Shown piece by piece: positions 13,519-35,512 of a DNA stretch of 64,000 bases; the stretch's first letter is position 1, and each line of letters starts with the position of its first letter. The notes beneath the pieces are model-generated. The model was given only the letters and a program-made list of their open reading frames with translations, did no database searches and was not told the origin of the DNA. This DNA comes from Strigamia acuminata (lineage: Eukaryota): positions 31,372,001 to 31,436,000 of the forward strand of contig OX442314.1 in the NCBI GenBank assembly GCA_949358305.1, given 5' to 3'. A program made the position numbers and the translations under genes.

Positions 13519-13907
13519 AGTAGGGGGATAGTGGCAGTCCTGGGCCAGTGGTTGGTGGTGAGGGGGGTGGGGGGTGGTGAGGGGTAAGTAGGGGGAGATA
13601 AGGGGAGGGGAAGATAAGTGGAGGGGGAGATAAGGGGAGGGGAGATAAGGAGAGGGGGAGATAAGGGGAGAGCTAAGTGGGGATGACTAATTGCCTCAAT
13701 CAATCAATCTTATCATTCGATCAATGTGCCCTAGGCTATTATTTGTTATTGTTTTTCTTTACTTAAGTACCTTGTTGTTGTTTTTCCCAAATTTTCAAAG
13801 GCCCCTTGTTTTTCTTTCCTTAAGCACCTTGTTGTTGTTTTTCCCAAATTTTCAAAGGACCCTTAGGCTACTTTTAACCAAAGGAGAGATATTATTGGGT
13901 ACTCATC
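13519..13907 (+). repeat. Polinton left terminal inverted repeat
   Basis: Reverse complement of 44868-45256 with very few mismatches. Confidence 0.95.
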
Positions 13908-14026
13908 AATGTCAGTGATGGAAAGGAAGGGTAAAACAGGAAGTGAGCGGTTCAAAGGGGAGGAGTTATCCTGTATAAATGCAACTCGCATTTTGGGATA
14001 CTCACCATTTCTTTCACAAACAAGCC

Positions 14027-14680
14027 ATGACTACTACTTCAAGCAGCGGGATCTACTCTCTTGGTGGGGAGATCTATTGTCAAGTCAATCCATTTCATAC
14101 CGATGTCTACATCCACCTGAGACGATTTCTGTCATACCCGAACGGAAAGCTGTATCCCTCTCGTGATGGTATGTGCATGAACGTTAAGACATTTTACGAA
14201 TTTGTGGAACATTGGAAGCAGATAACGAGTGAAATTGCGACTTTGAAATCCAAGAAATCATCAACCATTGAGTGCGAAGGTGGCGTTTTAGTCACCATAT
14301 CTAAGTCGAAAACAGATGATGTATCTGTGATGATATGTCGTTCATTTGCACCAGAGAAGTTTATTCTGCTATCGTATGAACAATGGCGTCAACTCAAGAA
14401 GCAGCAATCATCCATATTTTCGGGCATCGATGAAGTTCTGTCAATGTTGCATGAGACCAACCTTCAATTTCCAACTATTCTCGAGGAAACAACTGCAAGT
14501 CCATTTGTAACTCCAACCACATCTCAAGCTGCGATTGTTTTGAAAAAGAAAAAGGAGAGAAAGCAAATGAAGAAGAAACCATATCAGAGACCCATCCTTG
14601 GTGTACATTTTGTGGATTCATCTGATGAGGATGTTGATTCAAAACCTACCGGTGAACCTGCTGATACTGATGATGAATAG
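14027..14680 (+). CDS. Polinton protein with tandem PC4/Sub1-like ssDNA-binding domains and a basic/acidic tail
   Basis: YSLGGEIYCQV...VYIHLRRF...GKLYPSRDGMCM and LLSYEQWRQLKKQ resemble PC4 (ISLNPEQWSQLKEQ); ORF open from 13979, but TATAAA at 13974 favours ATG 14027. Confidence 0.7.
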   Translation: MTTTSSSGIYSLGGEIYCQVNPFHTDVYIHLRRFLSYPNGKLYPSRDGMCMNVKTFYEFVEHWKQITSEIATLKSKKSSTIECEGGVLVTISKSKTDDVSVMICRSFAPEKFILLSYEQWRQLKKQQSSIFSGIDEVLSMLHETNLQFPTILEETTASPFVTPTTSQAAIVLKKKKERKQMKKKPYQRPILGVHFVDSSDEDVDSKPTGEPADTDDE

Positions 14681-14946
14681 ATTTTTACATAATTTGTTAT
14701 TTGTATTGATAGAATAGAAATTGTATACTTTAGTTTAAATTTTTGTACTTATTTCTTTTTTTTTGTATTAATTATATAAATAAAATTTGATTGAATAAGA
14801 ATACATCTTTTTTCTTTCATTAATATCTTTAACAAATAAGTTAGGTTGTAAAAAGGCTATTTGTGTTATATTAGTAGAAATGGAGGATAAAACAGAAAGT
14901 GAGTGGCGCAAAGGTGTCCTCTGCTATGATTCGTTGAAACCATTTT

Positions 14947-14966
14947 AGACAAGTTTCAACATGTCT
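14947..14966. promoter_or_regulatory. p53-family response element, 19/20 match
   Basis: AGACAAGTTT-CAACATGTCT versus RRRCWWGYYY x2. Confidence 0.55.
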
Positions 14967-15058
14967 CAGCAATGGCACTGTTTGGAAGGGGGGATAAAAC
15001 AGGAAGTGAGCGGTGCAAAGGGGAGGAGTCCTATGCTATAATTTCTTGAAACCACTTG

Positions 15059-15078
15059 GGGCAAGTTTAGACATGTCT
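15059..15078. promoter_or_regulatory. Perfect p53-family response element, zero spacer
   Basis: GGGCAAGTTT-AGACATGTCT matches RRRCWWGYYY x2; followed by ATTGG and TATATA. Confidence 0.7.
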
Positions 15079-15113
15079 CCGATTGGACAGCGGAAAAGGT
15101 TAACTGCTATATA

Positions 15114-16334
15114 CAGGGTGGAACAAAAGTCTGTTCCCCTCAAATATTTCCTCACCAATTACATCTAGGCCAACTTTGATGAAGCGATCGTATAGGAAGT
15201 TAGGGGAGAGCAATCCAATGATGTCATCAAATTTGACCTTGAAAGCCATTTTCAAGGTCATTCACTTGCTAACTTCTAACCCAATCAAGTTAGAGCAAAA
15301 AAGTCAATTACAAAGTTGTAGAGCACCATCAAATTACTACTATCCAACTTATCTTAGTCATCTAAAGTTAAATGTTTTCTTTTTAAAAAGGAGACAAATC
15401 AGAAAAAAAATCAGCAAAGTGAAATTTTTTAACCCGCGGAGGCATAAGGATAAAATGTGCCGTTTTGGTTAAAGCCATTACGGATTTATGGACAATTTTT
15501 AAGTTGATTGGTTAAAGCGCCATTTAGTTTGTTTTTAATTCGGAACTAATTTTATTGAGAACGTAATGCCTAAACAATAAAAATAAATAGATTTGAGCCA
15601 TCTGGAGGTGGTTTTAATCACTACTGGTAAATGCGAAAAGCTGTTCACTGAAGCGCTGTTTACAAATACAGCAAAGCCAGCTTAAAAGTTATGCTGGAGT
15701 TTTAAGGGGCAGAAAATTTCCAAGTTGAATATTTAATTAAATAAATGATGAATCATTACAAATTTCACCTGAGATTTACTTTGTTATCAGATAAACAAAG
15801 TCACAAATTTTTAGCAAGAAAAATTCAGAGAAAAAAAAATTTCCTATTCAAGAAAAAGCTTGTCCATAAATCCGTATCGCCAAGGATTAATCTTGTGATA
15901 AAGTAATTATTGAGGCATTAAAAAAAGGCTGTGGTTTTTCTTGTTTACTTACATAATGATGCACATTTGAATACGTTTATTTAAGTAATTCAGTATTTTT
16001 GTGATAGAAATTTAAGTTTTGTCACAATGGCTGGCTTTATTTCAGCTGATTTGTCTCCTTTTTAAAATGAAAACATTTAACTTAAGATTATTAAGATAAG
16101 TTGGATAGTACTAATTTGATGGTGCTCTACAACTTTGTAATTGACTTTTTTGCTCTAACCTGATTGGTTTAGAAGTTAGCAAGTGAATAACCTTGAAAAT
16201 GGCCGTCAAGGTCAAATTTGATGACATCATTGGATTGCTCACACCCAACTTCCTATACGATCGCTTCATCAAAGTTGGCCTAGATGCAATTGCTCAGGAA
16301 ATATTTGAGGGGAACAGACTTTTGTTCCACCCTG
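15114..16334. mobile_element. 1221-bp Tc1/mariner-type MITE, copy 1
   Basis: TA|CAGGGTGGAACAAAAGTCTG...CAGACTTTTGTTCCACCCTG|TA; long TIRs; near-identical to 38942-40162. Confidence 0.93.
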
Positions 16335-16369
16335 TATACCGAGCTGATGTTTCTTTTGGATGAAAAAAC

Positions 16370-17068
16370 ATGGAGAAGACGACAATAGAGCCTGTTTGTT
16401 GGAAAGATATTCTCAAGCAGGATTTACACTTGCAGTATGGACTTCTATTCAACAAAGAAGTAGCTGATTCTACATTTCAAAAGCTGGAAAATGAAATCAC
16501 ATACTATACAGGTAGACTGAGTCAAATCAAGATTTATGGCAAGTGGATCAATATACCGAGACAACAAGTTGCATTTGGTGATGCTGGATTGAAATATTCA
16601 TTTTCCGGTAATACTTTACCGGTTAAAAGTTGGACTCCTCTTTTGCGTGATTTACGAGATGCCGTTCAATTTGTTACCGGACATGAATTTAACTTTGTTC
16701 TCATTAATCGTTATGCAAATGGAAACCAGACTATTGGTGAACATCGAGATGATGAGGCGGGACTTCATCCAAACGCACCAATAGCAAGCCTATCTCTAGG
16801 ACAAAACAGAAACTTTGTTCTTCGTCACGTGTCTCTTAAGCGAAAGTATACTATTCGCAACTCAGTTTTACCACCAAAGCCGATTTCTCTCACGTTGGAA
16901 CACGGTAGCATTCTGCTAATGCACCAACCTACAAACCGTTTTTGGTATCACAGTCTTCCAAAGCAAAGTTCTGCACTTCATCCGCGAATCAACTTAACTT
17001 TTAGAAACATCATTCAAAGTAAGTTCCATTTATTTAATGATATTATTATAAATGAATATTTATTTTAA
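16370..17068 (+). CDS. AlkB-family 2OG-Fe(II) dioxygenase, ALKBH2-like (Polinton-borne)
   Basis: IPRQQVAFGD, FNFVLINRY, GEHRDDE (HxD), IASLSLG, WYHSLP and RINLTFR motifs intact; possible terminal intron 17019-17080. Confidence 0.93.
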   Translation: MEKTTIEPVCWKDILKQDLHLQYGLLFNKEVADSTFQKLENEITYYTGRLSQIKIYGKWINIPRQQVAFGDAGLKYSFSGNTLPVKSWTPLLRDLRDAVQFVTGHEFNFVLINRYANGNQTIGEHRDDEAGLHPNAPIASLSLGQNRNFVLRHVSLKRKYTIRNSVLPPKPISLTLEHGSILLMHQPTNRFWYHSLPKQSSALHPRINLTFRNIIQSKFHLFNDIIINEYLF

Positions 17069-17569
17069 TTCGTGTTTTAGAATGAATTCGGAACAATTAA
17101 AAAACATAGGTTGTATTATTGACTTTGAGGGATTCCAGTTTGGTCCCGACTTTCTACTCAAGGAGCTCGGAGTGTGTTTTCTATACAAGGATTCTACTTT
17201 AAGTTATCACTTTCGTGTTGGACAATTCGACAAACTAGATCCAAAATGGCAAAAAGTTGCTGCTTGGTTAAAACGCAATATCCACGGTATGAAGTTTGAA
17301 GATGGTCCTGATGATCTACCTCAAAGCTGGATTCCTTTTATCCTCACATCTTTACATATAAATTGTGTTCAGGAAGCCAACAGACCAATTATTGCATTCA
17401 AAGGTGGTCAAATTGAAAAAAAATGGTTAATCAAATGTGACATTCCATACCTCGACCTCGAATCATTGGGATGTCCGAAATATCAGGACCTTCATTTTAA
17501 TCTTGATCCTGATTCAAAACCTTTATGTCACCTTCATGAATCCTTACTTCCCTCCAAGTTAATGCACTG

Positions 17570-19316
17570 TATGACGGTTTATAAGTGCTATTTATTAATA
17601 ACACGGCCGAATTTTAAGTGTTTTTGCGAAACCCGCATTTGTCAATGCTCCGAGTCGCCACTAGATGGCGCGATTATAATTCAGCGGTAAATTCGAATTG
17701 CGAGTTAAGAAAACTGGTAAATAAATATAAGAATATATTTATTTGTATGAAACGACACTTTATTAGGATTAATATAAATATATATTAATAATTATTGTTC
17801 ACACTAAGTGATGGGAATCTCTAGTTCAGCAGAAATGGAGATTTGATAATCCATCGATCAACCGATCGATGTGATTGGTGGATCCATTTCCGGTCCTGGG
17901 TATCCAGTTCCGGTTGTGGTGTGAATTAGCATATTGCTCCTCCGTATCCACTTCCGGCGATACGGGATTGGAGGGATTCGTGGAACCCATGTTCCAATTG
18001 GTTGATTGGATTAATCTCTAATCCAGTCAGGTTATATAAACCCAAACAACCGGCCATCCGGCGGCTCTGTTTGATTATTTCTGTTTGGTATTATTACTTA
18101 AGAAATATGATTCGTTGTCCATTAAAAAACCTTTTGGTTCTTTGTTGATTTATTCACAAAGAACCGCGGCATGATTCTACCGAATCATGCAACCACCGGC
18201 AATTGAAGCCGACGTATTGGATTGTTATGTTGCATACATGTTTCAAGTTACGGTCTCGCCGAGGAGAACCTGCCTTCTGTGCAATTCAGTATCCTCCGGG
18301 CAGGACTAAGTGGTCATTTTCGGTATGAACGCATCTCGTAACCGCAAGTAAGCACCGGAACTGTTGAGAGTTGGTTCCTTCACCTGTTGGTGCAAAAGCA
18401 GTCTGTTTCACAGTAACCACGAGTAGCACCAAGTGTTTGGCAAGCTGATTCTCATGGTATTTGGTGCCAAAGCAGTCGTTTTGTTATTAGTACCGCGAAG
18501 GGCTAAACTGCTGTGCGGAGCCGCGAGCTATCGACTCCTGTGTACGTGATACCGTCAATCGCTAGACGAACGACCGTGTTGCGGCGCAGGGGACGCTTGA
18601 TACCGTTCTGCATGGCAAGGCGTTTTCTATCGATGGCAATTGTGTGTTGCGACGGGAAGTCTAACATTTATCCTTTACGTTTATAACAGAACAATATTAA
18701 CTTGGCCACAAGTTAATTAATCAAAGTCAGGAAGACTTAAAAAAACAAGAATACATTGAACTCAATGTGACAAATAAGTTGACGACAACTTATCGATGAA
18801 ATATCCAGTAGAAAAACTCACAACACTTATGAATTAAATATAATTCATAATTGGAATATTGATAAGTAAATGAATACATTTACTTACACCAATATCCTCC
18901 CAAAGTTGTGGCGGTGCAGACAAAGTCAACCGCAATGCTCAGATCATTCGATTTATCGACGTGCGATAATATTACACAGCGAACCAAGGAACCAGCGAAG
19001 CCGTATCGGACTCCAGGACACAGCCATCCGGCTTAGATGACATCTATAATCAGGTCGAGCGATGGGGAAACCGCTCCCATCTCCCAGACCCGTAATGATA
19101 TTATTTTAGGGCCAGTTGGCCAATTCTTTGTATAGTTTAATAGCTGATTTAACTTGCCAAATGTCGGCATTAGTCCTATGTATAATTTAGCCTTGATATT
19201 ATTGTTTACCAACAATAAACTGTCTTGTATTTATCTCGTATTGTATTCACTGTTTATTTATTGCGATCTCTTCCCGGTACCATTGTTAAATGGGAGTTGT
19301 GGTCGTCACCGTCACA
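17570..19316 (+). repeat. Gypsy 5' LTR
   Basis: TATGACGG...CCGTCACA; direct repeat of 29776-31522; TATATAAA near 18033 and AATAAA near 19214. Confidence 0.95.
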
Positions 19317-19318
19317 CG

Positions 19319-19337
19319 TGGAGGTCCCACCGAGATT
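19319..19337 (+). other. Primer-binding site complementary to tRNA-Gln 3' end
   Basis: TGGAGGTCCCACCGAGATT, 2 nt after the LTR. Confidence 0.88.
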
Positions 19338-19644
19338 AGGTTGCAATTAATTCGATTGAATTGTAAAAGTGAATTTTTTTGAGATAAATAAGGCTAAAAA
19401 ATTTGTAAATAAATTTTACAAATTGCAGTTTTAGAAAGTACATTCTGTTTTCTCGAAGAAAATGAATAATACAATTCTGGACGAAGGAATTGCAACCAGG
19501 AATTCTAAATCTATCACACGATGATTGAGATAGATTTAATCGAAGTATTTAAAAAACTAAAGCTTCGGAGAATTTGATGGATATAAAACACAGAATAGTT
19601 ATATTTTGATATTTACTTTATTTTTCCGTGAAAAAGTAAAAGTA

Positions 19645-19664
19645 AGACAAGTTTAAACATGTTT
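19645..19664. promoter_or_regulatory. Perfect p53-family response element in the Gypsy leader
   Basis: AGACAAGTTT-AAACATGTTT matches RRRCWWGYYY x2. Confidence 0.6.
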
Positions 19665-20145
19665 AACGAATCGCAAGACAAAGAAAACTTGCAGAATATG
19701 GAACTTCAAAGTAAAATCCAGTATTAAGGAGAAGCTATAATAATTGGAAACAATTGACAAAGGTTGAAAGTGAATTTATTTTATTTTTATGAAATATATA
19801 ATTTTGGGAATATTTACAAATAATCTCTCGAAGGAATTTTATTTTATCGGTAAAGACTAAAAGTCGAAAAGAACGGACTTAGTAGAGAACTGATGACGAA
19901 AATGATACGTTCGTTATACAATCAGTTGATAACGAACCAGCCAATCAGGAACTAGGTGATCTAAGGATCCCCAGCCCCTTGCTATTAAAGGAGAGCCAGA
20001 TCAGATTGAGATCATTCGCTTCCAGACCAGACCAGCAGACGTGTTTCAGTAACCATCCTGACTGCGCCATCCGATTCTAGTTACGATTCGAAGTTTTCCA
20101 CCGCTAAAATAGTAAAAAAGACCGATTCAATTATATTTTTATAAA

Positions 20146-22482
20146 ATGGATCCAAACAATCTTCCTAACGAAGAAAAAGTGGCTGAAGAAAAGGCCGTAG
20201 AAGAAATAGTTAGCTTGGATTCAAGTTATGTAAAACTTTGTGACCAAACGGAAATGATTCCCGATGAACTCACACAGTTTTGTACGCATTACGAACTAGA
20301 TAGAACTCAGTTCAAAACCATAATCGAAGCTTCTGAATTTGTGACGAAGCGGGCGTTACGTAACATACGTATTAATCCAACTCCGGAAAAACGAGCAGAA
20401 CTTTCGAAGGAGAGTTCGGCGAACCATAAATCTGGAAAGGACCCAATCCCGTCGCCAAGAGATCTGTCTGAAGAAAACAGATCACGACCTAAAACTCCAC
20501 AACGTAAGTTGGGAGATCAAGCAAGAATTAAAACTCCGTCGGTTCGTAACCAAGATATTCGAGAGTTATTTCGAACATCAAGCAAGGAATCGCTTGATCA
20601 GTCCAGTTTAGGAAATAGAACTCCTCACTCCAGCAACGCCAGTTGCCACAATACTCCAAGTATTTCGGAGATAGGAGGATCCAATCTTTCAACTTTTCAA
20701 CCTGAAAATGCTAAAAAGCAGCCCAATCCACATATTTATACGGAGAATGGGACGAGACATTTTGCCAAACAAACCCCTAGAGGGCGAGGCAATAAATCCG
20801 CCATTCGACGGAAATTATCTCCACTACCATCTCCAGTCTTACCTCAAACTCGACAAGAACAATTGAGATTAGACGAAGTGGAAAAGGAACGAATTAGGCT
20901 GGAAGCAACTAATCAAAAACAGATTAACGACGAAAAGATTCGCCAAGATAAACTTGAAGGAGAAGTTGTCAATCAAAACGAAGTTCGTAAGTCGATAGAC
21001 AAAAACGATAAAATTCTAATTGATCAATTACGGGCCCAATGGCGACAGGAACACGATGAAAAGTTCCAAAAGCAACAAGATCAATACAATAAGAAGTGGG
21101 CGGAAGTGAACAGAATTGAAGACAATCAACGCAAGCGGGAGAAAACCTTACAGGAAAGCATCCGGCTAAATCTCGCGGCGTCCACTCGGGCTAGCCATGG
21201 TAGTGAACCCCGAGACCAGACGAATCCGTCACGTGCATCTACCGATGACATTCCAAGTTCACATTCCTCGGCAGAAAGTTCTACAGGAACTAGACTTCCC
21301 TCTGACGGAACTAATATTTCATTTGACTATATTTTGAAAATGCAACAAAATATGGCCGCCCAATTCCAAAAACAATTGGATAGTCGAATAGATACATTCG
21401 TTCAAACTCAACAAACAACTGGGCCGCAACGATCTAATAATCCAGGACCCAGTAAAGTCTTTTTCAAAGGACAAGACCTTCCAGTTTTCGATGGAAAACA
21501 GGAGGATATAGATAAATTTTTATCAGTAGCTAAAACTGTAGCTATTTCAAAGGGATTAACTCTGGACGAAATGGTTAATCAAGGTATTCCCACCTATTTG
21601 TCCGGATTAGCCCAACAATGGTATGACGAGAATAAAACCAAGTTTACCAACTGGGAAACCTTCGTAGAATTATTTCGTGAAGAATTCGACATGATTCCAA
21701 CTACTCGACTCCGAAATTTACGAAAAGTAATCCAAGGAGACGATGAACCTTTATATGAATTTCTAGTCAGATTCACTAAAGCCCAAGGATCGTACTCCGA
21801 AAGAGGAAATGTTGCCACACTTTTCGACAACTTGAATTGGACAAGTTACAATAGATTAATCGATCGAAATCTATACAGGAGCGATTCAGTAGATAAAATT
21901 TTCCAATTCGTACGAACGAATAGAGCTCTCTTTGAACCTCAAAGGATTCGTACAGAGAATTCCAAAGAAATTGATAAAGTAGTATCTAACAACCAGAAGT
22001 ATTCTAAAGATACCAAAAATACGAGACCTTCTGCTCGATCCACTCAAATGATGGAAATAGAGCCGGAAGAAGAAATAATGGAAGTCAATGAGTTGACAGA
22101 GAATAATGTATCAATGGATAATTTATTATGTGCCATGTCGGAAAATCAGACAGGGAAATGTTTTCATTGTAAACAACCAGGTCATTTCAAAAGAGAATGT
22201 CCTCTGCTTCCAAAGCGAAAATTTAGCAATAATTTCCCTGGAAATAATAATTCCAATAACAATAGCGCTAATCAGCAGCCGAACGAATTTAAGCGACCAC
22301 GCCAAAATTGGGTAACTGCCGAAGCTATTGATCAAAAAATGGAAGAGTTAAAAACTGATATGAATAACAGTATGCAAACAACGATAAGTAAGACAGTGTC
22401 GGATTTATTTAGTAAATTCTTAGACCCGAAGAACGCTACTACGGCACCAATTACTGAAACCCCACCGGTTCCAAAAAACTAG
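20146..22482 (+). CDS. Gypsy gag
   Basis: LPVFDG, YLSGLAQQWY, WETFVELFREEF capsid motifs; CFHCKQPGHFKREC CCHC knuckle. Confidence 0.92.
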   Translation: MDPNNLPNEEKVAEEKAVEEIVSLDSSYVKLCDQTEMIPDELTQFCTHYELDRTQFKTIIEASEFVTKRALRNIRINPTPEKRAELSKESSANHKSGKDPIPSPRDLSEENRSRPKTPQRKLGDQARIKTPSVRNQDIRELFRTSSKESLDQSSLGNRTPHSSNASCHNTPSISEIGGSNLSTFQPENAKKQPNPHIYTENGTRHFAKQTPRGRGNKSAIRRKLSPLPSPVLPQTRQEQLRLDEVEKERIRLEATNQKQINDEKIRQDKLEGEVVNQNEVRKSIDKNDKILIDQLRAQWRQEHDEKFQKQQDQYNKKWAEVNRIEDNQRKREKTLQESIRLNLAASTRASHGSEPRDQTNPSRASTDDIPSSHSSAESSTGTRLPSDGTNISFDYILKMQQNMAAQFQKQLDSRIDTFVQTQQTTGPQRSNNPGPSKVFFKGQDLPVFDGKQEDIDKFLSVAKTVAISKGLTLDEMVNQGIPTYLSGLAQQWYDENKTKFTNWETFVELFREEFDMIPTTRLRNLRKVIQGDDEPLYEFLVRFTKAQGSYSERGNVATLFDNLNWTSYNRLIDRNLYRSDSVDKIFQFVRTNRALFEPQRIRTENSKEIDKVVSNNQKYSKDTKNTRPSARSTQMMEIEPEEEIMEVNELTENNVSMDNLLCAMSENQTGKCFHCKQPGHFKRECPLLPKRKFSNNFPGNNNSNNNSANQQPNEFKRPRQNWVTAEAIDQKMEELKTDMNNSMQTTISKTVSDLFSKFLDPKNATTAPITETPPVPKN

Positions 22483-22504
22483 TGGCGGGGGTCCTCGAGC
22501 CCCC
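22473..22504 (+). other. -1 programmed ribosomal frameshift signal
   Basis: A-AAA-AAC heptamer immediately before the gag TAG; GGGGG...CCCCC hairpin 7 nt downstream; pol lies in the -1 frame. Confidence 0.8.
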
Positions 22505-25500
22505 TATTAATAATTCCGAAGGAATTTTACCACCAGACTTGGAACAAGCACTTTCCGAAACTTTGGATAATTTAACTATTCAAGATAAAGAAATTAAGCG
22601 TGCTCGTCCTAACCGGAAGACACGGAAAAGGAACTGGAATTATAAGTTTAAAATCGCGTCAAATACGCCCTTTTCGGCAGAGGAGACAGCAAACCCGTTC
22701 TTGAATTTTCACGACGACCTGTTTTCTCTAGATAAGGGGGACGAATCTTTAGCTAGATTGATACAAGATACATCCAACCTTAATATTCGTGATGAATCCA
22801 CCAGTTCTAGTGGAGGAGTATTCGAGAATTTACAATCAATGATTGATAATTTGAATCCCGACTCCAAATCCTCCAGATTTGCGAGATTAAAATCTTACAT
22901 TAACGAGAATCAGTTAAAACGAAAAGATGGCATCGAACGAATTAATAAATTGGGAAATCACATCGACGACCCCCGAATGAAAATTACAATAGGTGGACTC
23001 ACCTACAATGCTTTGATGGACTCAGGAGCCACACAGTGTTTTATTGGGTTGCAATTACTAAGTAAAACTTGTGCATCTCCCGATTTCATACAAGATTGTC
23101 CAAAACACATGAGAGTTTGTGCAGTTGGAGTTACTCATATTCCACTAGGACAAATTACTTTGTGTGTACAATGGGCAGATGGAGCAGAATTCACACCAAT
23201 AAATTTTATCATTTTGGATAATAATGTGTGTGGATTAATTATCGGACATAATTTTATGCGCCGAACCAAAATTAATTTAAATCCAGCACGAGCTGTATTT
23301 ACTTGCGACAGCAAGTCCGACTGGACTGCACCCTACGAAACTGACGAGTTAAATTGTAATTTAGCTCGAGTACAAGTGTTGACTGACAACGCAACAGCCA
23401 CACACACGCCAGATAATTGGGAAGAATTGCTGGTAAAGGATTGTGACTGTTCAGAGGAGGAAAAAAGTAAATTACGCGAAGTAATTGCTAGTGTTAAGAA
23501 CGTCTTTAGAGATAAAGTCGGATGTACTAACATAATAAAGCATAAGATCACCTTTAAAAAGGATGTAACGTGGAAAAAACAACCATTTCGAATGTATAAC
23601 CCTGCTAAAATAGCCATTATGACTAAATTAGTAGAAGAATTAGAAGCGGATAATTTGATCGAAAGAGCTACTGGACCTTACATAAGTCATCCAGTGATCG
23701 TAGCCAAACCAAATGGTACTTATCGTTTATGTATCGATTATCGGTGGTTGAATGCAATCACCGAAATTAACGCCATACAAATGCCAAGTATTGATTTGTT
23801 ACTCCACAATACAAATCAGGCAAAATATTTCACGTCTCTTGACCTTACCAAAGGTTATTATCAGGTCGAGATGGACGAGGAAGATAGACAGAAAACAGCC
23901 TTTTATACTCCGAAAGGCAATTACCAATTTGTCCGCATGCCTTTTGGTCTTTGCAATGCGCCGTGTACATTTCAGTTCTTAATGGAACGAGTGATGGGCG
24001 AAGCATTATACAAACACGCGTTAGTCTATTTGGACGACGTGATAATCTTCTCCACCACTTGGGAGAAACATCTTGAACATATCAAAGATGTGTTGGAAAG
24101 ACTAGATAAGGCCAACTTATCAGTAAATAAGGAAAAATCAAAATTTGGAAAAACTACACTCAAATTTTTGGGTCATTTGATAACTCCAACCGGATTAGCA
24201 CCTGACCCAGACAAGATAGTATCCGTTAGGAAATATCCAACTCCTAAGAATTCCAAGGATATTCAACGATTTCATGGCTTGTCAAATTTCTTCCGGAAAT
24301 TTATTCCCGAACATGCAAAAATTGCTAGGCCTCTAACTAGCATGATGCATGATAAAGCAGTGTTCGAATGGGGAGAAGAACAAGAGAAAGCTTTTGAAAC
24401 AATAAAAAATATTTTATGTGACGAAACACAGGTTTTGTTAATGCCAGATATGATGAAACCATTCGTAATCTTGACAGACGCATCGCATGATGGACTTGGT
24501 AGTGTGTTATGCCAAGATGTAGAATTCTTCGATGAAGGAAAGAGAGAAATGATCATGACTCCTAGACCCGTAGCTTATGCTAGTCGAGTCTTACGAGGGG
24601 CAGAAGTACGCTACTCAACACCCGAACTCGAGTGTTTAGCAGTAGTATGGGCAGTCGACAAATTCCGACCGTATATCGAATATACGACTTTTACTTTGGA
24701 ATCAGACGCCGAAGCATTAAAATGGCTGATGGGAACACCAGAACCATCGGGACGATTTGGTCGTTGGGCAATTAAACTTCAATGTGGCGCCTTTAAGATT
24801 AAATATCGACGAGGTACCCAGAACCAAGTTGCCGACGCCTTCTCGAGAGCGCCTTTGGAGATCGAAGACATTCCAGAGAATGATTATTGTGAGCCAATCG
24901 AGATTACTCAATTCTGGCCGGAATGGGACGGAAATCGAGAAATTATTCGAAGGAATAATAGAGAAGATTGCCAATTTCTCACGAATGTGCAGCTTCATTT
25001 CGATTATTCCAAATTATTATACAATACTTTGGAAAAGGGGGAGAAGATGGATGAAGCTACAGAAGAAACACTATTTAGTGCTTTAACTGAAGTTTTAAAG
25101 GAAGTTCCACCGACTCGAGAAGAAATTATAAAAGCTCAACTAGCCGACAAAGAGTGTAGAATAATAATCGATCATCTGAAACGAGATGAAATCGAACAAA
25201 GAAAGTTTAAAAAAACTAAAGAATGGATGAAAGCAGTCCAAGGTTACCAATTAGATTTTCAAGAAGAAAATGGTAATGAAATGCTGATTTATTTCAAACC
25301 AACGTTTGAAGAGGAATTGAATGACTCTGGAAACGGATTTAAAGCTGTCATTCCACCGTCATTAGTACGAAGAGTACTGTTTGCCTGTCACGGACATCCA
25401 TTAAGTGGACATGCAGGGATGAGTAAGACGCTCGAACGAGCAAAACTTATATATTACTGGCCGAAGATGAATAAAGATACTCGCAATTACGTCCGAAGTT

Positions 25501-26774
25501 GTATTCATTGCCAGCAATACAAGCCCTGTCAACATAAAAAGCATAGAGCGAGTTACACTCCTCATAACATGTCTTACCCGTGGGAAGTAATCTGCATTGA
25601 TTTAATGGGTCCCAAACCGACAGGAAGAAGCCAATACAGATTTGTATTAGTAATTATAGATCAATGTACTAAATGGGTAGAATTATTCCCTTTAAGTAAG
25701 GCATCTAGTGAATCTATTGTGAATAGGTTAGGAGAAGTGATTCATAGATGGGGATACCCAAAGAAAATTGTTAGTGATAACGGGAGCCAATTCATATCCA
25801 CGATTTATGAAGAGTTTTGTAAAAAACACAACATCAGAATGGCTCATGTGAGTCCATATCACGCTCAGGCCAATCCTACGGAAAGGGCCAATAGAGACAT
25901 CAAAATAATGCTGGCTCTTTATTCAGACATTCACTCCCATTGGCCGAGATTCTTAAACGAATTTGCATTTGCCTCGAGAACGGCTAAATCAGAAGCTACA
26001 GGCGCAACGCCATTCTTATTGAACACAGGAAGAAATGTACCTCTTCCCTTTGATCCTCGGATCATTCAACATGCAAATGCATTTGACAAGAATAACCCGG
26101 AAGAATACGTATATAATTTACTTGGAATTTTACGTCGAGCACATCAAGAGATGCATTTGCGTATTCAAGCAAATTATGAGAGACACGACAAGATTCACAG
26201 AAATAAATTTCACATTTGTGAATATACTGTCGGTGATTTGGTATGGAAAGCCACTCACATCCTTTCAAATAAAGAGAAAGGAATTACTAAAGGTTTCGCC
26301 GAGAAACGAGATGGACCGTGGGAAATTACGGAAGTTTTACCTGGAGGTGCTTATAAGTTGAGAAAATTAGTTGATGGATCAATAGAACCATCCATAAATA
26401 CTGATGATCTCTCACCTTATATCCCATCTTACCCGATTGAGACTTGGACACTCGACCAAAAGAGTGGAAGAGTAGAGAATCACCCAAACCCTGATTGGAT
26501 GAACGAAAGTTCAACCGTAAATAATTCAAGTGAATTAAATAATCAAGAATTAGGAAATAATTCTGCTAATATGGAATTAGATCCCGAAGAAGTTACAACA
26601 CCCGCTTCAAAAGAAAGCGACATCGTAGTTAATAATCCAAAACATGATTATAACCTTAGGAAAAGGAAAAGAAGTTGTGAACTTTCACAACTGCAACCTC
26701 GTACGAAGCGAATTTCTACGACAGATCAAGAATGCACAACAGATTTTATACATCTGATTCAAGATCGCCGCTAG
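22479..26774 (+). CDS. Gypsy pol (protease, RT, RNase H, integrase)
   Basis: LMDSGAT, RLCIDYR, YLDD, TDAS, HH-CC zinc domain, IDLMGP/SDNG/TERAN; uninterrupted. Confidence 0.96.
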   Translation, partial: LVAGVLEPPINNSEGILPPDLEQALSETLDNLTIQDKEIKRARPNRKTRKRNWNYKFKIASNTPFSAEETANPFLNFHDDLFSLDKGDESLARLIQDTSNLNIRDESTSSSGGVFENLQSMIDNLNPDSKSSRFARLKSYINENQLKRKDGIERINKLGNHIDDPRMKITIGGLTYNALMDSGATQCFIGLQLLSKTCASPDFIQDCPKHMRVCAVGVTHIPLGQITLCVQWADGAEFTPINFIILDNNVCGLIIGHNFMRRTKINLNPARAVFTCDSKSDWTAPYETDELNCNLARVQVLTDNATATHTPDNWEELLVKDCDCSEEEKSKLREVIASVKNVFRDKVGCTNIIKHKITFKKDVTWKKQPFRMYNPAKIAIMTKLVEELEADNLIERATGPYISHPVIVAKPNGTYRLCIDYRWLNAITEINAIQMPSIDLLLHNTNQAKYFTSLDLTKGYYQVEMDEEDRQKTAFYTPKGNYQFVRMPFGLCNAPCTFQFLMERVMGEALYKHALVYLDDVIIFSTTWEKHLEHIKDVLERLDKANLSVNKEKSKFGKTTLKFLGHLITPTGLAPDPDKIVSVRKYPTPKNSKDIQRFHGLSNFFRKFIPEHAKIARPLTSMMHDKAVFEWGEEQEKAFETIKNILCDETQVLLMPDMMKPFVILTDASHDGLGSVLCQDVEFFDEGKREMIMTPRPVAYASRVLRGAEVRYSTPELECLAVVWAVDKFRPYIEYTTFTLESDAEALKWLMGTPEPSGRFGRWAIKLQCGAFKIKYRRGTQNQVADAFSRAPLEIEDIPENDYCEPIEITQFWPEWDGNREIIRRNNREDCQFLTNVQLHFDYSKLLYNTLEKGEKMDEATEETLFSALTEVLKEVPPTREEIIKAQLADKECRIIIDHLKRDEIEQRKFKKTKEWMKAVQGYQLDFQEENGNEMLIYFKPTFEEELNDSGNGFKAVIPPSLVRRVLFACHGHPLSGHAGMSKTLERAKLIYYWPKMNKDTRNYVRSCIHCQQYKPCQHKKHRASYTPHNMSYPWEVICIDLMGPKPTGRSQYRFVLVIIDQCTKWVELFPLSKASSESIVNRLGEVIHRWGYPKKIVSDNGSQFISTIYEEFCKKHNIRMAHVSPYHAQANPTERANRDIKIMLALYSDIHSHWPRFLNEFAFASRTAKSEATGATPFLLNTGRNVPLPFDPRIIQHANAFDKNNPEEYVYNLLGILRRAHQEMHLRIQANYERHDKIHRNKFHICEYTVGDLVWKATHILSNKEKGITKGFAEKRDGPWEITEVLPGGAYKLRKLVDGSIEPSINTDDLSPYIPSYPIETWTLDQKSGRVENHPNPDWMNESSTVNNSSELNNQELGNNSANMELDPEEVTTPASKESDIVVNNPKHDYNLRKRKRSCELSQLQPRTKRISTTDQECTTDFIHLIQDRR

Positions 26775-27581
26775 TGATAGCGTATTTTTTTAAAATAAAA
26801 ATTTAAAAAAGATAAAAAATCGGGTCACTTTTTGACCCACAAATTAGTCATGGTTAAATCATAAACCTATAGGAGAATAGGGTGAAAATACCCCGGGTAG
26901 AGAGTAGAGGATTTGTTCTCTCACAAGCTTCACACACATGTGCGAGTCAACTTTGACACCTGCGTCGATAGAAAAGTTCGTCGCGATTTCTTTCAAGAAA
27001 ACCTCGAGATTCGTGGTAAGACTCATGTATTACCAGTAAAACTCGGAAATTATGTGTCAGGACTTAATGTTATAATCCTTTCATGATAGAAAAGGACGAG
27101 AGAAAACTTCGGTGATTAATTTCGTCTGAAAGAGACAAACACGTGACCTCGGCGTGAAGAAGAAAATTTCTCCTTCGAGAAAATTCGAAATATCATCACG
27201 ACAGTTCAACGTTTACTAGAGTGTTACGTGTAAGTAATGATAAATTTAATATATCAAGAGATATTCACGGCTATTTTATATATAAAATTAGGATTTCTAC
27301 GTTGGCGGAGAACACCTTCGCTAAAAACAACGAGTTTTGTCAATTAGAAAATCGGCACCACATCATTTTGAATACTTAAGTGGATTCCGGAGATTCCTAG
27401 TGTAAGTATTCTAAAGATAATTCTATCGAATATTACGAATAGTAAAAAAGCCGCACGTAAAATCCCGATATAAAAATATATCGAAACCATCGATAAAGTT
27501 GATAAATTTTCACGATAGATGGCGGTATAAATTTTGTTAAATAAATCGTATTGATAAGATTCTCTATATTATTTTCTCTAG

Positions 27582-29264
27582 AAAAAATGGGAAAAAAAGA
27601 TCGAAAAAAAGAGAAAATACGTGTTGGTCGAATCCTCTTCCTCCGATGAAGAAGTAACGGCACCTCCTTCGGCCGCTGCCGTATTCGTAGAAGGGTGTCC
27701 CAAAACACCCGTGATTATCAACGCCAGAGGCTGGGATATTTTGAGTTGGGCTCGCCAACATCCCGAATTGCTCCCCGCTGAGCTTGGTCCACCCGGAACC
27801 CCCACGTTACAGGAGGAACCGGCCAAAAAAGAATCAACGGCGAAGCCATTTGTTATTCCAAAGATAAAAGCGGATGATTTCGCCAGAAATAATCCGCCAA
27901 TTGCAAAAAACCAGCCAAGTACCAGTAAACCGCGAAAGGTGGAAATTGTGTACAACCGAGTCAAGTCGCCCGAACGAAGAAGGAAATCCCCACCAATGGA
28001 AGCTAAACGCCGCCGAAATTCGGAAGACGCTACACCTTCCTCTTGTACTGGCCAAGAGCGTCCAAAAAGAGAATACGTTAGATTTAACGATTCACCAGAC
28101 CGAGACCGGGAAAAAAGGTCGTATTCCTCCTACCGAAGGTCCGACCGACCTAGGAATAGGTCAAATACCAGCGCATGGTCAGATCGCCAAAAGTTGGCAA
28201 ATAAAGTTCGTCAGATCCAGAAAAGACGAGAACAGTGTAAACAAGATAAAGAGAACGGAAAACCACATGATGATATGGTACTCTCGAAGGACGAAGTGCC
28301 ATGTCCTTTTTGTTCCGCCGTCGGGTGGGTCTCGGGATCGGGAACCGGAGGCCACCTGGCGCAATGTTCCAATTGCGAGGGCACAAAGAAGCGGCCCAAA
28401 GGCCAACCTTGGCGCCCCAGCTTTCTGCCGTTTGTGGTCATGGGAATTCACCCTCCCCCGGCCAGGTTGTGGGCAACTTGCCCGGAGTGTAAAATTGTCC
28501 TCTCCAGTGACGGAAGATCGCCGTACATCAGCCCGGAGTTCTTGAACGCCATAACCACTCCACTAGGAAGGGAAATGCAAGATCTGAGAATTCCGCCAGA
28601 AGCTCTAGAGAGTTCCCGAAAACCACAGAGTACGACAGTCATCGATAAAGGATGTCAAACGGTATCCAAGGAGAACGAAAAAGAAGCCGAAAATGAACTT
28701 CTTGTGGAACCCTTTTTCCCTCCACCAGGAGCGAAAATAGCGCATCTATTCGAATACGAGGTGAGCTACTATTTTCCGACGCTTTTTAGAATTGCCGAGA
28801 AAATCACGGAACAAATGCGCTCAGACTCTACCGATCCCTCGAATATCAATTATGCTGTCCATGTGATGAAATTGATATTTAACGCCAATCGAGGCGAATC
28901 TTTTGCTGTGCTGGAGCACATATGGACACTGTTAATTGACAGAGTCAACACCGACGGAAAAGGATTAATAAACCCTTCATGGTTCTACGGACTCCCCTGC
29001 ATTGCGGAGATATACGACGCTTCGAAGAAGGCTATTGAAGAAAGTTATGAGTTAGTTGAGAAGACTCCAGAATATGAACCAAGGTCTCCGGAGTACGCGC
29101 CGAAATCTCCACCCGCAGAAGATATAGGTGAAGAACCCAATTTCGTCATCGACCGAAGACCAGCGGAATTTCTTCCCCTAGAAAAGTCCGAAGTCGGTGA
29201 GTCCAGTGAGACTCTTAAGAAGGAGAGTGAAGGATCGGAGTCTGATGAAGAAGAAGTCAAGTGA
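27582..29264 (+). CDS. Gypsy accessory ORF3 of unknown function, probably spliced
   Basis: About 560 open codons beginning right after a TTTTCTCTAG acceptor; CPFC...H..QCSNC and CPEC Cys pairs; SP/RS-rich and acidic segments; no hydrophobic TM seen. Confidence 0.7.
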   Translation, partial: KKWEKKIEKKRKYVLVESSSSDEEVTAPPSAAAVFVEGCPKTPVIINARGWDILSWARQHPELLPAELGPPGTPTLQEEPAKKESTAKPFVIPKIKADDFARNNPPIAKNQPSTSKPRKVEIVYNRVKSPERRRKSPPMEAKRRRNSEDATPSSCTGQERPKREYVRFNDSPDRDREKRSYSSYRRSDRPRNRSNTSAWSDRQKLANKVRQIQKRREQCKQDKENGKPHDDMVLSKDEVPCPFCSAVGWVSGSGTGGHLAQCSNCEGTKKRPKGQPWRPSFLPFVVMGIHPPPARLWATCPECKIVLSSDGRSPYISPEFLNAITTPLGREMQDLRIPPEALESSRKPQSTTVIDKGCQTVSKENEKEAENELLVEPFFPPPGAKIAHLFEYEVSYYFPTLFRIAEKITEQMRSDSTDPSNINYAVHVMKLIFNANRGESFAVLEHIWTLLIDRVNTDGKGLINPSWFYGLPCIAEIYDASKKAIEESYELVEKTPEYEPRSPEYAPKSPPAEDIGEEPNFVIDRRPAEFLPLEKSEVGESSETLKKESEGSESDEEEVK

Positions 29265-29775
29265 CTCGCGGAGTTAATTTTCGAATTTAATAGAATTTAA
29301 GGAAAAAATGTTAGAATTAACGAAAAACTCAAAAGTATTCTGTTTAGTATTTAATAAGCGGTTGTGATATGCAAAAGTCATGGTATTTTTTTAAAAAAAA
29401 AAGGAAAATCGAGAGATAATCCTATAAATCAAAAGAAATCTTTTAATAATTGTTAAGCTAAAAAGAAATAATTTACCAAAAAATTATGTTAAGATTCCCG
29501 TTATTTGAAATAATAATTGTGTGAAGAAATGAGGCTAAGTGTTGTAAAGTTCCAAGTTTGTTTTATTGTAACCAAATAATATTTTATTCTTGATAATTCA
29601 TTAAAAAAGAATTGTTGCGCACATCAGAAATATGAAATTTATTTTGAGTCACCCGCATACGCACTCAGCTGTTCGGGATGAAAAAAGTCCTGTTTTGAGA
29701 TATTAATAAAATCATTTCGCAAGAATAACATAAACTTATGAATAAAATTTATAAGTTGAGTAATTAAGGGGGATG

Positions 29776-31522
29776 TATGACGGTTTATAAGTGCTATTTA
29801 TTAATAACACGGCCGAATTTTAAGTGTTTTTGCGAAACCCGCATTTGTCAATGCTCCGAGTCGCCACTAGATGGCGCGATTATAATTCAGCGGTAAATTC
29901 GAATTGCGAGTTAAGAAAACTGGTAAATAAATATAAGAATATATTTATTTGTATGAAACGACACTTTATTAGGATTAATATAAATATATATTAATAATTA
30001 TTGTTCACACTAAGTGATGGGAATCTCTAGTTCAGCAGAAATGGAGATTTGATAATCCATCGATCAACCGATCGATGTGATTGGTGGATCCATTTCCGGT
30101 CCTGGGTATCCAGTTCCGGTTGTGGTGTGAATTAGCATATTGCTCCTCCGTATCCACTTCCGGCGATACGGGATTGGAGGGATTCGTGGAACCCATGTTC
30201 CAATTGGTTGATTGGATTAATCTCTAATCCAGTCAGGTTATATAAACCCAAACAACCGGCCATCCGGCGGCTCTGTTTGATTATTTCTGTTTGGTATTAT
30301 TACTTAAGAAATATGATTCGTTGTCCATTAAAAAACCTTTTGGTTCTTTGTTGATTTATTCACAAAGAACCGCGGCATGATTCTACCGAATCATGCAACC
30401 ACCGGCAATTGAAGCCGACGTATTGGATTGTTATGTTGCATACATGTTTCAAGTTACGGTCTCGCCGAGGAGAACCTGCCTTCTGTGCAATTCAGTATCC
30501 TCCGGGCAGGACTAAGTGGTCATTTTCGGTATGAACGCATCTCGTAACCGCAAGTAAGCACCGGAACTGTTGAGAGTTGGTTCCTTCACCTGTTGGTGCA
30601 AAAGCAGTCTGTTTCACAGTAACCACGAGTAGCACCAAGTGTTTGGCAAGCTGATTCTCATGGTATTTGGTGCCAAAGCAGTCGTTTTGTTATTAGTACC
30701 GCGAAGGGCTAAACTGCTGTGCGGAGCCGCGAGCTATCGACTCCTGTGTACGTGATACCGTCAATCGCTAGACGAACGACCGTGTTGCGGCGCAGGGGAC
30801 GCTTGATACCGTTCTGCATGGCAAGGCGTTTTCTATCGATGGCAATTGTGTGTTGCGACGGGAAGTCTAACATTTATCCTTTACGTTTATAACAGAACAA
30901 TATTAACTTGGCCACAAGTTAATTAATCAAAGTCAGGAAGACTTAAAAAAACAAGAATACATTGAACTCAATGTGACAAATAAGTTGACGACAACTTATC
31001 GATGAAATATCCAGTAGAAAAACTCACAACACTTATGAATTAAATATAATTCATAATTGGAATATTGATAAGTAAATGAATACATTTACTTACACCAATA
31101 TCCTCCCAAAGTTGTGGCGGTGCAGACAAAGTCAACCGCAATGCTCAGATCATTCGATTTATCGACGTGCGATAATATTACACAGCGAACCAAGGAACCA
31201 GCGAAGCCGTATCGGACTCCAGGACACAGCCATCCGGCTTAGATGACATCTATAATCAGGTCGAGCGATGGGGAAACCGCTCCCATCTCCCAGACCCGTA
31301 ATGATATTATTTTAGGGCCAGTTGGCCAATTCTTTGTATAGTTTAATAGCTGATTTAACTTGCCAAATGTCGGCATTAGTCCTATGTATAATTTAGCCTT
31401 GATATTATTGTTTACCAACAATAAACTGTCTTGTATTTATCTCGTATTGTATTCACTGTTTATTTATTGCGATCTCTTCCCGGTACCATTGTTAAATGGG
31501 AGTTGTGGTCGTCACCGTCACA
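29776..31522 (+). repeat. Gypsy 3' LTR
   Basis: Direct repeat of 17570-19316, preceded by the PPT. Confidence 0.95.
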
Positions 31523-31612
31523 ACTGTCCCCAAGCTGAGTGTCTTTGCTTTAAGGAGTGGTGTATTGAAACTCAAGACCATTCTTATCTCGACGATCTTG
31601 AAGCCCTCCTTC

Positions 31613-31939
31613 ATGGAACGGGAAATGAAAATGCGAACGGAGATGATGCGGCGAATCCGGGAACGGAAGAAAACCTTTCACAACTGGCCTGTTTCTAGAC
31701 ACATCGCCGACCCTTCCACCTTAGCCCGTGCTGGATTCAGATACTTGAGTGAAAATGATCATGTTGAATGCGTCTACTGTCTCGGTCGATTAAAAGAGTG
31801 GAAACGTGGTGACATACCTCTTTTGGAACATTATTCTTGGTACACCTATTGTCCATTAATGAGAATTACTTTTGAAAAAGGACTGAATGAAGAGTGCTTG
31901 ATTTATAATTCCATCTATGGGTTAGATACACCAGGTTGA
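31613..31939 (+). CDS. Single-BIR inhibitor-of-apoptosis-like protein (Polinton-borne)
   Basis: RKKTFHNWP...LARAGFRY...DHVECVYC...W...D.PLLEH......CP: complete BIR with CCHC zinc ligands. Confidence 0.9.
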   Translation: MEREMKMRTEMMRRIRERKKTFHNWPVSRHIADPSTLARAGFRYLSENDHVECVYCLGRLKEWKRGDIPLLEHYSWYTYCPLMRITFEKGLNEECLIYNSIYGLDTPG

Positions 31940-31968
31940 TAGAAACACCACATTTTGTAACAATTTCT

Positions 31969-32493
31969 TTATTTCTTTGTTTTACTTATTTGCACGATAC
32001 AATTTTTATCATACAATGTTGACATCTTAAAATTAAAAATATGTTTAACAAATTTTGTAACTTTTTTATCATTGTAATATGGATTTCTTGGATTAAATTG
32101 ATTTTTTATATAATCAAAGTCTTTTCCTTTACACCTATTATAAATAAAATAAACGCAATAATATCCACATGCGAGACTACACGGTGATTGATAGGTTTGA
32201 GTAATCCTGTTGGTTAGTTTACATCCGATATTTTGAATAAAAGCAGTAATTTCTTTTGCTGGTGGTTTACCAAACGAATCAAAATATTCAATCGCACCGG
32301 GTACTTTCTCATCTCGAAACAATGCTACCCAATGTTCGCCTGGTTTTGTATGGGGATGAGTATTTACAACAAACGCGCATGTTTTGTTTGTTTGTTGCGA
32401 TGAGGATAGCAAATCAATTGGATATACACCCTTAAAAATTTGCCTCGTCACTGAATTCTTAGATAAAATCTCCGTTATTTGGAGCGTGTTCAT
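31969..32493 (-). CDS. Polinton adenain-like cysteine protease
   Basis: VVNT....PGEHWVA, YFDSFG, YQ.....CGYYC. Confidence 0.92.
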   Translation of the reverse strand: MNTLQITEILSKNSVTRQIFKGVYPIDLLSSSQQTNKTCAFVVNTHPHTKPGEHWVALFRDEKVPGAIEYFDSFGKPPAKEITAFIQNIGCKLTNRITQTYQSPCSLACGYYCVYFIYNRCKGKDFDYIKNQFNPRNPYYNDKKVTKFVKHIFNFKMSTLYDKNCIVQISKTKK

Positions 32494-32501
32494 AGCTTGA
32501 G

Positions 32502-33839
32502 TTAAAATTCAGTAATGATATTCCTCGCTCTATCAATCTCCAGTATGGATTGATATTCCGCCAGTACTAATACGGTTATGGTTGCAGTTAAGGCTTTATT
32601 AAATCTCATTTCAATCCTAACATTTCCTTGTTTTACTAAATTCAAATGTGGTTGACCGGCGGATGCATCTTGCGTTAAATCAAATCCAAATAAAACATTT
32701 CCGCCTAAACAATAATCAGTATACGAAATGCCTAATCCTAAATCTTTATCTGCTCTATTCATAGTTTGGTATAAGGTAATAAATTCACGAGCTGCTTGTC
32801 CTTTTGCAAAATCTGGCTTATATGGACTCATTGGTACTCCTTTTCCATCCAAAAATACTTGAAGAAAATTTATTCCTTGGTTTTCAAAATTATACGGATT
32901 ACTGGCATATGATCCGCAGTAGGCAGTGTTTTTCACAAGACCAATAATCAATCGGGATGGATATTGACCGAGAAATGCATTATCAATCATAGCAGTTTGC
33001 GATCCTGTAGCAATTGTAAATGTCTTAACTTCTACCCTTCTAATGGGATATTTTGCATTACGTTGCTCTAATGCTTGATGATGAGCTAAGAGTACACTAG
33101 CGCTAGGAACTATCTTTTTTACAAATAAAGTTGCATCATTTATAACTGTTTTATAGGCCGCCCCTTCCTCTTTTGAAATTAAACTAAATGCATCATTTTG
33201 TCTAGTAAGTGTAATTCGCAAGTCAACATTATTTATGAGATAATGTGGTTGAGAAAAGATATCGCAGTGAAGTCTTCCAAACATCTGTAATTTTCCACAA
33301 TCACCATCCTGCATGAGTCGATGATATCGTTTATAAATTCCAAACTCCTCGTTAAAATCTGCTACTGTTGGATCTAAATCATCAAATGATCCTCCTGTAT
33401 CCTCATAATACATCTCCACTGTTTTATAACTCTTTTTGGCATCATTTGAAAAACTGAGAATTGTTTCGAGATAACTTCTATAACAATAATTTGAATCGGA
33501 AGCTGACACTAGCTTATCATTTAGTCTAACATCTATTTGACTGAACAATGAATGTAGGAATAAATTTGTAGGAGAAACCTTAGCTGTTTTTGTAATTACA
33601 GCCCCAGCACCATCGGTTACAGTTACATTTAGTAACAAGTATGTTTGACTCAAGTCAATGTACGTATCAGCAGTACCCTTGATTGAAAAATCTAATGGCT
33701 GTCCTGCAGTTACGGCTGTAATTGGATGGTATTCACTCCAATAATTATCTTCCACAGTTATTTGTGTGAGTGGTAATCCAAAAATGTCTAGTTCTGGAGT
33801 CGCGCCTTCGGCGGATGATTCATGGGGAAATTGCGGCAT
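32502..33839 (-). CDS. Polinton major capsid protein (double jelly-roll)
   Basis: ELDIFGLPLTQ, NLFLHSLFSQIDV, RYLETIL-like, G.LHCDIF.Q, NPYNF, FGFDLT; 445 aa. Confidence 0.9.
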   Translation of the reverse strand: MPQFPHESSAEGATPELDIFGLPLTQITVEDNYWSEYHPITAVTAGQPLDFSIKGTADTYIDLSQTYLLLNVTVTDGAGAVITKTAKVSPTNLFLHSLFSQIDVRLNDKLVSASDSNYCYRSYLETILSFSNDAKKSYKTVEMYYEDTGGSFDDLDPTVADFNEEFGIYKRYHRLMQDGDCGKLQMFGRLHCDIFSQPHYLINNVDLRITLTRQNDAFSLISKEEGAAYKTVINDATLFVKKIVPSASVLLAHHQALEQRNAKYPIRRVEVKTFTIATGSQTAMIDNAFLGQYPSRLIIGLVKNTAYCGSYASNPYNFENQGINFLQVFLDGKGVPMSPYKPDFAKGQAAREFITLYQTMNRADKDLGLGISYTDYCLGGNVLFGFDLTQDASAGQPHLNLVKQGNVRIEMRFNKALTATITVLVLAEYQSILEIDRARNIITEF

Positions 33840-33841
33840 GG

Positions 33842-34324
33842 CTAATCAAATATGTCAGGTCCAAGAAGTGAAGTTTTCCTTTTGCAGGACTTCCTACGCA
33901 CGTTCTTCTTCGGTCGAGTTCGTCTCTTAGACTGATTCTTTTGTTTGGTTACACGTCTTTTCTTTTGTTTACCATCCATCCGCTTTTGTTTGCCTCCTTT
34001 CTGTACACCAATCTTTTTTAAAAAATCCGATTTGGTTCGAACAACCTGATCTTTAAATGCATTTCCAAATTTTCTCTTGTTTACACGCATATCGGAAATT
34101 ACGTCTAATCCTCTCTTCAAACCATACGTTGCTGCATCCAACGCTCCACTTCTCACAAAAGGCTTTACAATTCGAAATGCGTCACTTATAAGTGAACCCA
34201 AACCATGTCCTTGTTGATAGCGAGATCCTACAAATATAGGAAGATCTGCTCCACCTATTTGCGCATGATTTGAGCAATATCTATCCATGCAGATTTGAGG
34301 GTTGTGTTCATAGTGAAATCTCAT
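33842..34324 (-). CDS. Polinton basic core/virion protein
   Basis: QIGGADLPIFVG...QQGHGLG conserved-type N-terminus; very K/R-rich C-terminus ending DIFD; position between minor and major capsid genes. Confidence 0.7.
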   Translation of the reverse strand: MRFHYEHNPQICMDRYCSNHAQIGGADLPIFVGSRYQQGHGLGSLISDAFRIVKPFVRSGALDAATYGLKRGLDVISDMRVNKRKFGNAFKDQVVRTKSDFLKKIGVQKGGKQKRMDGKQKKRRVTKQKNQSKRRTRPKKNVRRKSCKRKTSLLGPDIFD

Positions 34325-34328
34325 CTTG

Positions 34329-35459: not shown

Positions 35460-35512
35460 GCCTGCTCACTTCTGATTGCATCATTGACGTGACATCACCT
35501 CTTATATGAACA

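Follow-up and report, generated by a model that had tools for sequence, protein, structure and literature searches.

Results

Organization of the Polinton and of the insertions in it

The window, that is, the whole stretch of 64,000 nucleotides that was analysed, contains a Polinton/Maverick element that is itself interrupted by other mobile elements (Table 1). Pfam matches were obtained for its integrase (rve) and its protease (Peptidase_C5), and the integrase chromodomain was located in a separate short ORF. The capsid ORF had 479 relatives at E ≤ 1e-50, several of them named F54H12.2-like, and we take it to encode the major capsid protein. Relatives of the Walker-A ATPase ORF were found in 27 of the 80 Polinton loci described below, and relatives of the 934-aa polymerase-like ORF in 10 of these 80 capsid loci. 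For the latter ORF, Pfam gave Endonuclease_7 only; the motifs it carries are presumably those of PolB. A second, weak PC4-like ORF (E 0.03) was noted on the polymerase strand at 38524-38910. In the divergent core promoter, what we take to be an ATF4/CEBP-type word (35475-35483) adjoins a presumed CRE-type word (35485-35492); the first of these also occurs three times in the flanking transposon and may thus be common here. The AGATAA words in the purine-rich repeat of the TIRs, five of which were counted in the left TIR, are presumably of the GATA type.

Table 1: Features of the Polinton and of the elements inserted in it.
Feature	Position	Strand	Remarks
Polinton/Maverick element	13519..45256		389-bp TIRs, 99.5% alike; 6-bp target duplication on both flanks
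Purine-rich TIR repeat	13590..13670 (left TIR), 45105-45185 (right TIR)	+ (left)	
Third promoter unit, before PC4-like gene	13902..14012	+	ETS block intact (85% over 65 bp, 13902-13966)
PC4-like ORF	13979..14680	+	Pfam PC4, slightly below cut-off
Promoter unit 1	14885..14991	+	ETS core with one mismatch at 14893-14901
p53-type site, 19/20	14947..14966		Both CWWG cores intact
Promoter unit 2	14992..15098	+	ETS-type word at 14999-15008 intact
p53-type site, 20/20, zero spacer	15059..15078		Two RRRCWWGYYY decamers, cores intact
TA run, likely TATA box	15108..15113	+	29 bp past the perfect site; struck by the MITE
MITE, 1221 bp	15114..16334		TA target; not in other natural copies
ALKBH2-like dioxygenase (AlkB)	16370..17068	+	Intronless; iron and 2-oxoglutarate residues intact
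ORF of uncharacterised family (nuclease-like)	17052..17569	+	Weak Maelstrom/3'-5' exonuclease lead; split by Gypsy
Gypsy-type LTR retrotransposon	17570..31522	+	LTRs 100% identical; 4-bp target duplication
Independent perfect p53-type site	19645..19664		Gypsy leader, between 5' LTR and gag
Single-BIR protein	31613..31939	+	108 aa; C2HC zinc ligands intact
Protease (Peptidase_C5), major capsid, two further core ORFs	31969..35459	-	
Divergent core promoter	35460..35512		53 bp; no p53 site
ATPase, two further ORFs, rve integrase	35513..38469	+	Integrase ends at 38229
Type B polymerase-like ORF and upstream zinc-finger ORF	40317..44846	-	Upstream regions without p53 site

The Gypsy element was inserted inside the nuclease-like ORF. 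The MITE, which we assume from its TA target and its ends to be of the Tc1/mariner type, has a second, 100% identical copy at 38942-40162, and both copies lie in TA runs of the same Polinton. The Gypsy and MITE insertions are very recent. Because the MITE sits in a TATA-like run, the window copy is likely silenced, and as a Polinton it is probably inactive. Several other elements were seen around it. Related MITEs occur at about 1608-2378 and 53795-54772, and the Polinton itself is inserted in one arm of a larger inverted-repeat element (11722-13518 and 45257-45533), giving three levels of nesting. The window also holds an intact Bel/Pao element with identical LTRs (4326-10420), a further LTR-retrotransposon pol (60240-63947), a long acidic tandem-repeat ORF (51715-53109) and, between the Gypsy pol and 3' LTR, an extra 422-aa ORF with no Pfam match (27996-29264). 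Together with the animal-type relatives of AlkB and of the capsid, the Bel/Pao element indicates an animal host.

The AlkB gene and its neighbours

The accessory arm of the Polinton consists, in order, of the PC4-like ORF, two promoter units, a TA run, AlkB, the nuclease-like ORF and the single-BIR ORF. The predicted AlkB protein contains both the HxD...H iron triad and the RxxxxxR 2-oxoglutarate motif, and its closest solved relative is ALKBH2 (E 1e-64; ALKBH3, E 2e-22). In a FastTree phylogeny of 48 sequences, including 43 of the 120 listed homologs, the gene sat on a long branch among animal ALKBH2 and was not placed within any host lineage. As judged from the position of a TATA-like word at 13974, the true start of the PC4-like ORF is likely the ATG at 14027. 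The ORF that begins at 17052 belongs to a widespread family, with 322 relatives recovered by exhaustive search and none by a word-indexed homolog search.

Baculovirus and DIAP1-type IAPs have multiple BIRs and/or a RING. In the BIR ORF of the Polinton, Pfam detected one BIR only, with no RING and no other domain above the cut-off. The ORF is third in the row and lies, in the window copy, 14 kb away beyond the Gypsy element. The initial annotation had proposed that p53 switches on anti-apoptotic genes of the element; a lone 108-aa BIR in this position gives that proposal no support.

p53-type sites in the AlkB promoter

The region upstream of AlkB contains a repeat with a period of 107 bp, the two units of which align well. 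A search for two adjacent RRRCWWGYYY decamers recovered one p53-type site in each, so that the two-unit repeat and both sites, one matching at 19 of 20 positions and one perfect, stand as the initial annotation described them. Its inventory of such sites was incomplete, since it had missed the second perfect site, in the leader of the Gypsy element. Under iid and order-1 to order-5 Markov models, 0.002-0.003 perfect 20-mers are expected per 64 kb, in agreement with the earlier rough estimate of well under 0.01; the chance of a second independent perfect site within one window is about 0.003. When the window was scanned with a hand-set PWM, the three p53-type sites scored 21.7, 20.1 and 18.9, and the next best match 9.7. 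Of 320 palindromic patterns of equal information, 317 had no match in the window and two matched one 10-bp tandem repeat, and the p53 pattern alone among the 320 permuted patterns formed two separate clusters. These p53-type motifs are a real, non-random feature of the window.

Other parts of the module were less regular than had been claimed. An ETS word had been assigned to each unit; GGAA is intact in unit 2, but the core in unit 1 carries a mismatch. ATTGG follows unit 2 only. The TATATA said to follow the units exists as the TA run, which doubles as the insertion site of the MITE and includes its TA target duplication. Three of the four differences between the 20-mers of units 1 and 2 keep the consensus, and the 14 core and pyrimidine positions are unchanged between them (p 0.085, not significant). 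The perfect site lies 1291 bp from the AlkB ATG in the window copy and 68 bp from it without the MITE, close to the 70 bp previously given. That the sites were derived from the MITE was ruled out, as they lie outside it and are present in MITE-free contigs. The sequence gives good support to a predicted p53-family site in the proximal promoter of the AlkB gene.

The module had been regarded as simply duplicated; it is in fact present in three copies, the third preceding the PC4-like gene and including the TATA-like word. The alignment of this third unit covers the position of the p53 site, yet no p53 site is present there. This unit is a promoter module that belongs to the element itself. In seven other non-coding stretches of the Polinton, the best p53-type match had 4-8 mismatches. 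None of the stretches before the polymerase/zinc-finger genes, the capsid gene and the ATPase/integrase genes contained a p53-type site, and no spaced half-site pair with at most one mismatch was found elsewhere in the Polinton. Within the stretches scanned, the predicted p53-type site is restricted to the promoter of AlkB. Its presence before AlkB only fits gene-specific selection and argues against SOS-like induction of the whole element; the analogy with SOS sensing by prophages, drawn in the initial annotation, fails here because the replication, capsid and ATPase/integrase promoters have no p53-type site.

The perfect site in the Gypsy leader shows no flank similarity to the Polinton unit, and its origin as a copy of that unit was ruled out. 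The independence of the Gypsy site suggests that several mobile elements of the host carry p53-type sites.

Sister copies of the element

Contigs from sequencing runs X1, X2, X3 and X6 were compared with positions 13500-17600 of the window. Of the six runs listed, three contained the stretch; these three come from two studies, and X1 is possibly the source sample. In X1, X2 and X3 (two studies, with the same reservation about X1), the sequences on either side of the MITE are joined directly, and the perfect site thereby comes to lie 68 bp from the AlkB ATG. One X3 contig (record 18) covers both sites and the MITE-free joint, differing from the window by five other letters and two gap letters over 173 promoter bp; listed difference rows outside the p53 sites account for both gap letters and for two of the five other letters. 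A more divergent X1 contig, with 34 other letters and 10 gap letters, also spans both units. Among the 40 of 620 difference rows listed, none fell in the p53 sites, where about 0.35 would be expected by a hand estimate from the 25 non-MITE rows.

The number of units varies among the copies. A joint between 14810 and 14976, seen in X1, X2 and X3, indicates that some sister copies are without unit 1 and its site, and in one X2 contig two successive ETS blocks seem to be connected with no p53 site in between. A back-jump of 107 bp suggests extra promoter units. For an AlkB relative of 82% identity (X1 record 5, X2 record 13), no promoter piece was present among the matches listed. Three listed contigs exit the window at 17570 with 33-35 of their letters left over, and these presumably represent Gypsy-free copies. 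The Polinton family is young and multi-copy.

Other Polintons and AlkB loci

Alignment of the capsid retrieved the best 80 of 460 confirmed metagenome stretches. These 80 Polinton loci comprise 409 kb and 67 clusters at 85% identity, and 40 of them have a non-coding run of at least 300 bp. AlkB, PC4, the nuclease-like ORF and BIR were all absent from the 80 loci. Perfect p53-type sites occurred in two of them (six overlapping matches; shuffle mean 0.07), and the other 78 had no such site even when one mismatch was allowed. Two in 80 is a modest result because one of the permuted patterns matches three loci.

The strongest p53 layout seen is that of locus L043, a Polinton with 36% capsid identity to the window element. 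At positions 1208-1354 of this locus, an AP-1-type word is followed by seven p53 half-sites at intervals of exactly 10 bp; 10 bp past the array stands a TATA word, and the first ORF of an ATPase-integrase-capsid run comes next. Of the 11 differences among the half-sites, 10 stay within the consensus (six of seven distinct changes), with p between 0.002 and 0.03 depending on transition bias, which is not the pattern of a drifting minisatellite. The second locus, L036, is a near-complete Polinton with three tandem half-sites in its accessory region (14557-14586); these lie between converging ORFs and are not promoter-like in placement. In another Polinton locus, L027, repeated non-coding words at 2550-2950 and 3400-3560 are presumably AP-1/ETS composites.

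The viral_contigs collection, which contains almost no animal Polintons, gave no relatives for AlkB by itself or for the capsid. Eight distant AlkB loci, most of them on large viral contigs, and one Polinton-like locus (L089) were found in it, and none of these had a p53-type site within two mismatches. The triple half-site pattern had zero matches in this collection, a result made uninformative by its scarcity of animal Polintons.

Discussion

The core idea of the initial annotation, that this virus-like element senses host DNA damage through p53, is plausible but was overstated. We consider it quite likely that a host p53-family protein binds the predicted site. That such a protein binds the AlkB-promoter site and also activates AlkB after damage is a further claim, on which our confidence is evenly poised. 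According to this reading, the best of those considered, the ALKBH2-like repair gene carried by this young, multi-copy Polinton family directly downstream of p53-consensus sites and a TATA-like box would be switched on by a host p53-family protein that likely binds there. It would do so when it is active, with DNA damage or breaks in the germ line as the likeliest occasions. Basal activity may come from the ETS-bearing promoter unit of the element, which also precedes the PC4-like gene, and the p53 site would add stress control to AlkB alone. The enzyme might then remove alkyl lesions from the replicating DNA of the element or aid survival of the host cell.

Members of the p53 family have a common consensus, and those of invertebrates act for the most part in the germ line. 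The site may accordingly be bound by a host p53/p63/p73-type protein and serve as a steady germ-line or stem-cell enhancer rather than as a damage sensor, which would tie expression of the element to heritable cells. A perfect site of its own is present in the leader of the unrelated Gypsy element, in which no repair gene was detected, and p53 has been reported, in the cited part of a study, to act on mobile elements in the fly and fish germ line (PMC7608743). We nevertheless regard steady germ-line use as unlikely, as the site precedes the repair gene only and not the polymerase, integrase and capsid genes needed for germ-line spread. Repression of the element through the site, as at the human LINE1 5' UTR, seems very unlikely to us. 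Restraint of retrotransposons by p53 (PMC4701979) and repression of LINE1 through sites in its 5' UTR (PMC7608743) are described in the cited passages, and the Gypsy site likewise lies in a 5' leader; however, purely harmful sites should be lost, yet here the site was duplicated, and the seven-fold array of L043 just upstream of a TATA word looks more like the layout of an activator.

The match might also have arisen by chance or by drift of the repeat, or be the site of another factor, with the second site a by-product of duplication of the ETS unit. Units 1 and 2 are indeed one event and not two, units without a site occur and unit number varies within the family, 78 of the 80 other Polinton loci lack a site even with one mismatch allowed, and scanning at genome scale yields rare matches post hoc. 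These points are countered by the second, independent perfect site in the same window, by the position of the Polinton's perfect site 29 bp before a TATA-like run, and by the L043 array, which varies almost only inside the consensus, unlike a drifting minisatellite. We consider this set of explanations quite unlikely. Returning to damage-induced activation by host p53, an extension of it would be that the promoters of animal Polintons came under the host p53 family repeatedly and independently, forming a lysogen-like damage switch that acts on a captured repair cassette in the window element and, in L043, on the core run of ATPase, integrase and capsid genes. This extension is doubtful. If true, the switch would be the missing trigger by which animal Polintons are activated, and would offer a means of inducing their never-seen particles.

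Comparison with known systems

The window element shares its TIRs, 6-bp duplication, integrase, C5 protease, capsid, ATPase, polymerase-like ORF and an accessory region beside the TIR with animal Maverick/Polinton elements (adintoviruses; PMC8097293, PMC8502044). Neither "p53" nor "AlkB" appears in the main text of these two surveys, and no paper listed in searches of an open-licence library refers, in its title or the opening of its abstract, to p53 sites or an AlkB gene of Polintons; the window element carries an ALKBH2 gene with p53-type sites. Maverick virions have not been observed, and the activation trigger is only speculated on in the section concerned (PMC8097293). If a host stress factor reads Polinton promoters, the question of activation becomes testable by ChIP and by RNA-seq after damage.

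The SOS system induces prophages. In the cited portions of two papers, ATM and p53 are implicated in EBV reactivation (PMC5531659, PMC8601603). As in both cases, a latent DNA element would here read a damage signal of its host; the EBV and prophage switches, however, control a lytic cascade, whereas here no p53 site stands before the replication or capsid genes.

That transposons can carry p53 sites is already established: consensus sites are reported in the zebrafish EnSpm-N6_DR transposon (PMC3485254), and sites in the human LINE1 5' UTR mediate repression of that element (PMC7608743), as far as the cited sections go. The present element resembles these in being a mobile element with consensus p53 sites. 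In EnSpm-N6_DR and LINE1, however, the sites control nearby host genes or keep the element repressed, whereas here they precede the element's own captured repair gene. The closest parallel in gene content is with human ALKBH2, on whose promoter TP53 was reported at about -190 bp in a single glioma line (PMC2920031, cited part). The enzyme family and the proximal promoter position are the same in both cases, with p53 binding a prediction in ours. Human ALKBH2 is a host gene, whereas the gene of the Polinton is intronless and long-branched and is preceded by the element's own promoter unit. If the predicted control is real, a mobile element has rebuilt the p53-to-ALKBH2 link that was reported for the human gene.
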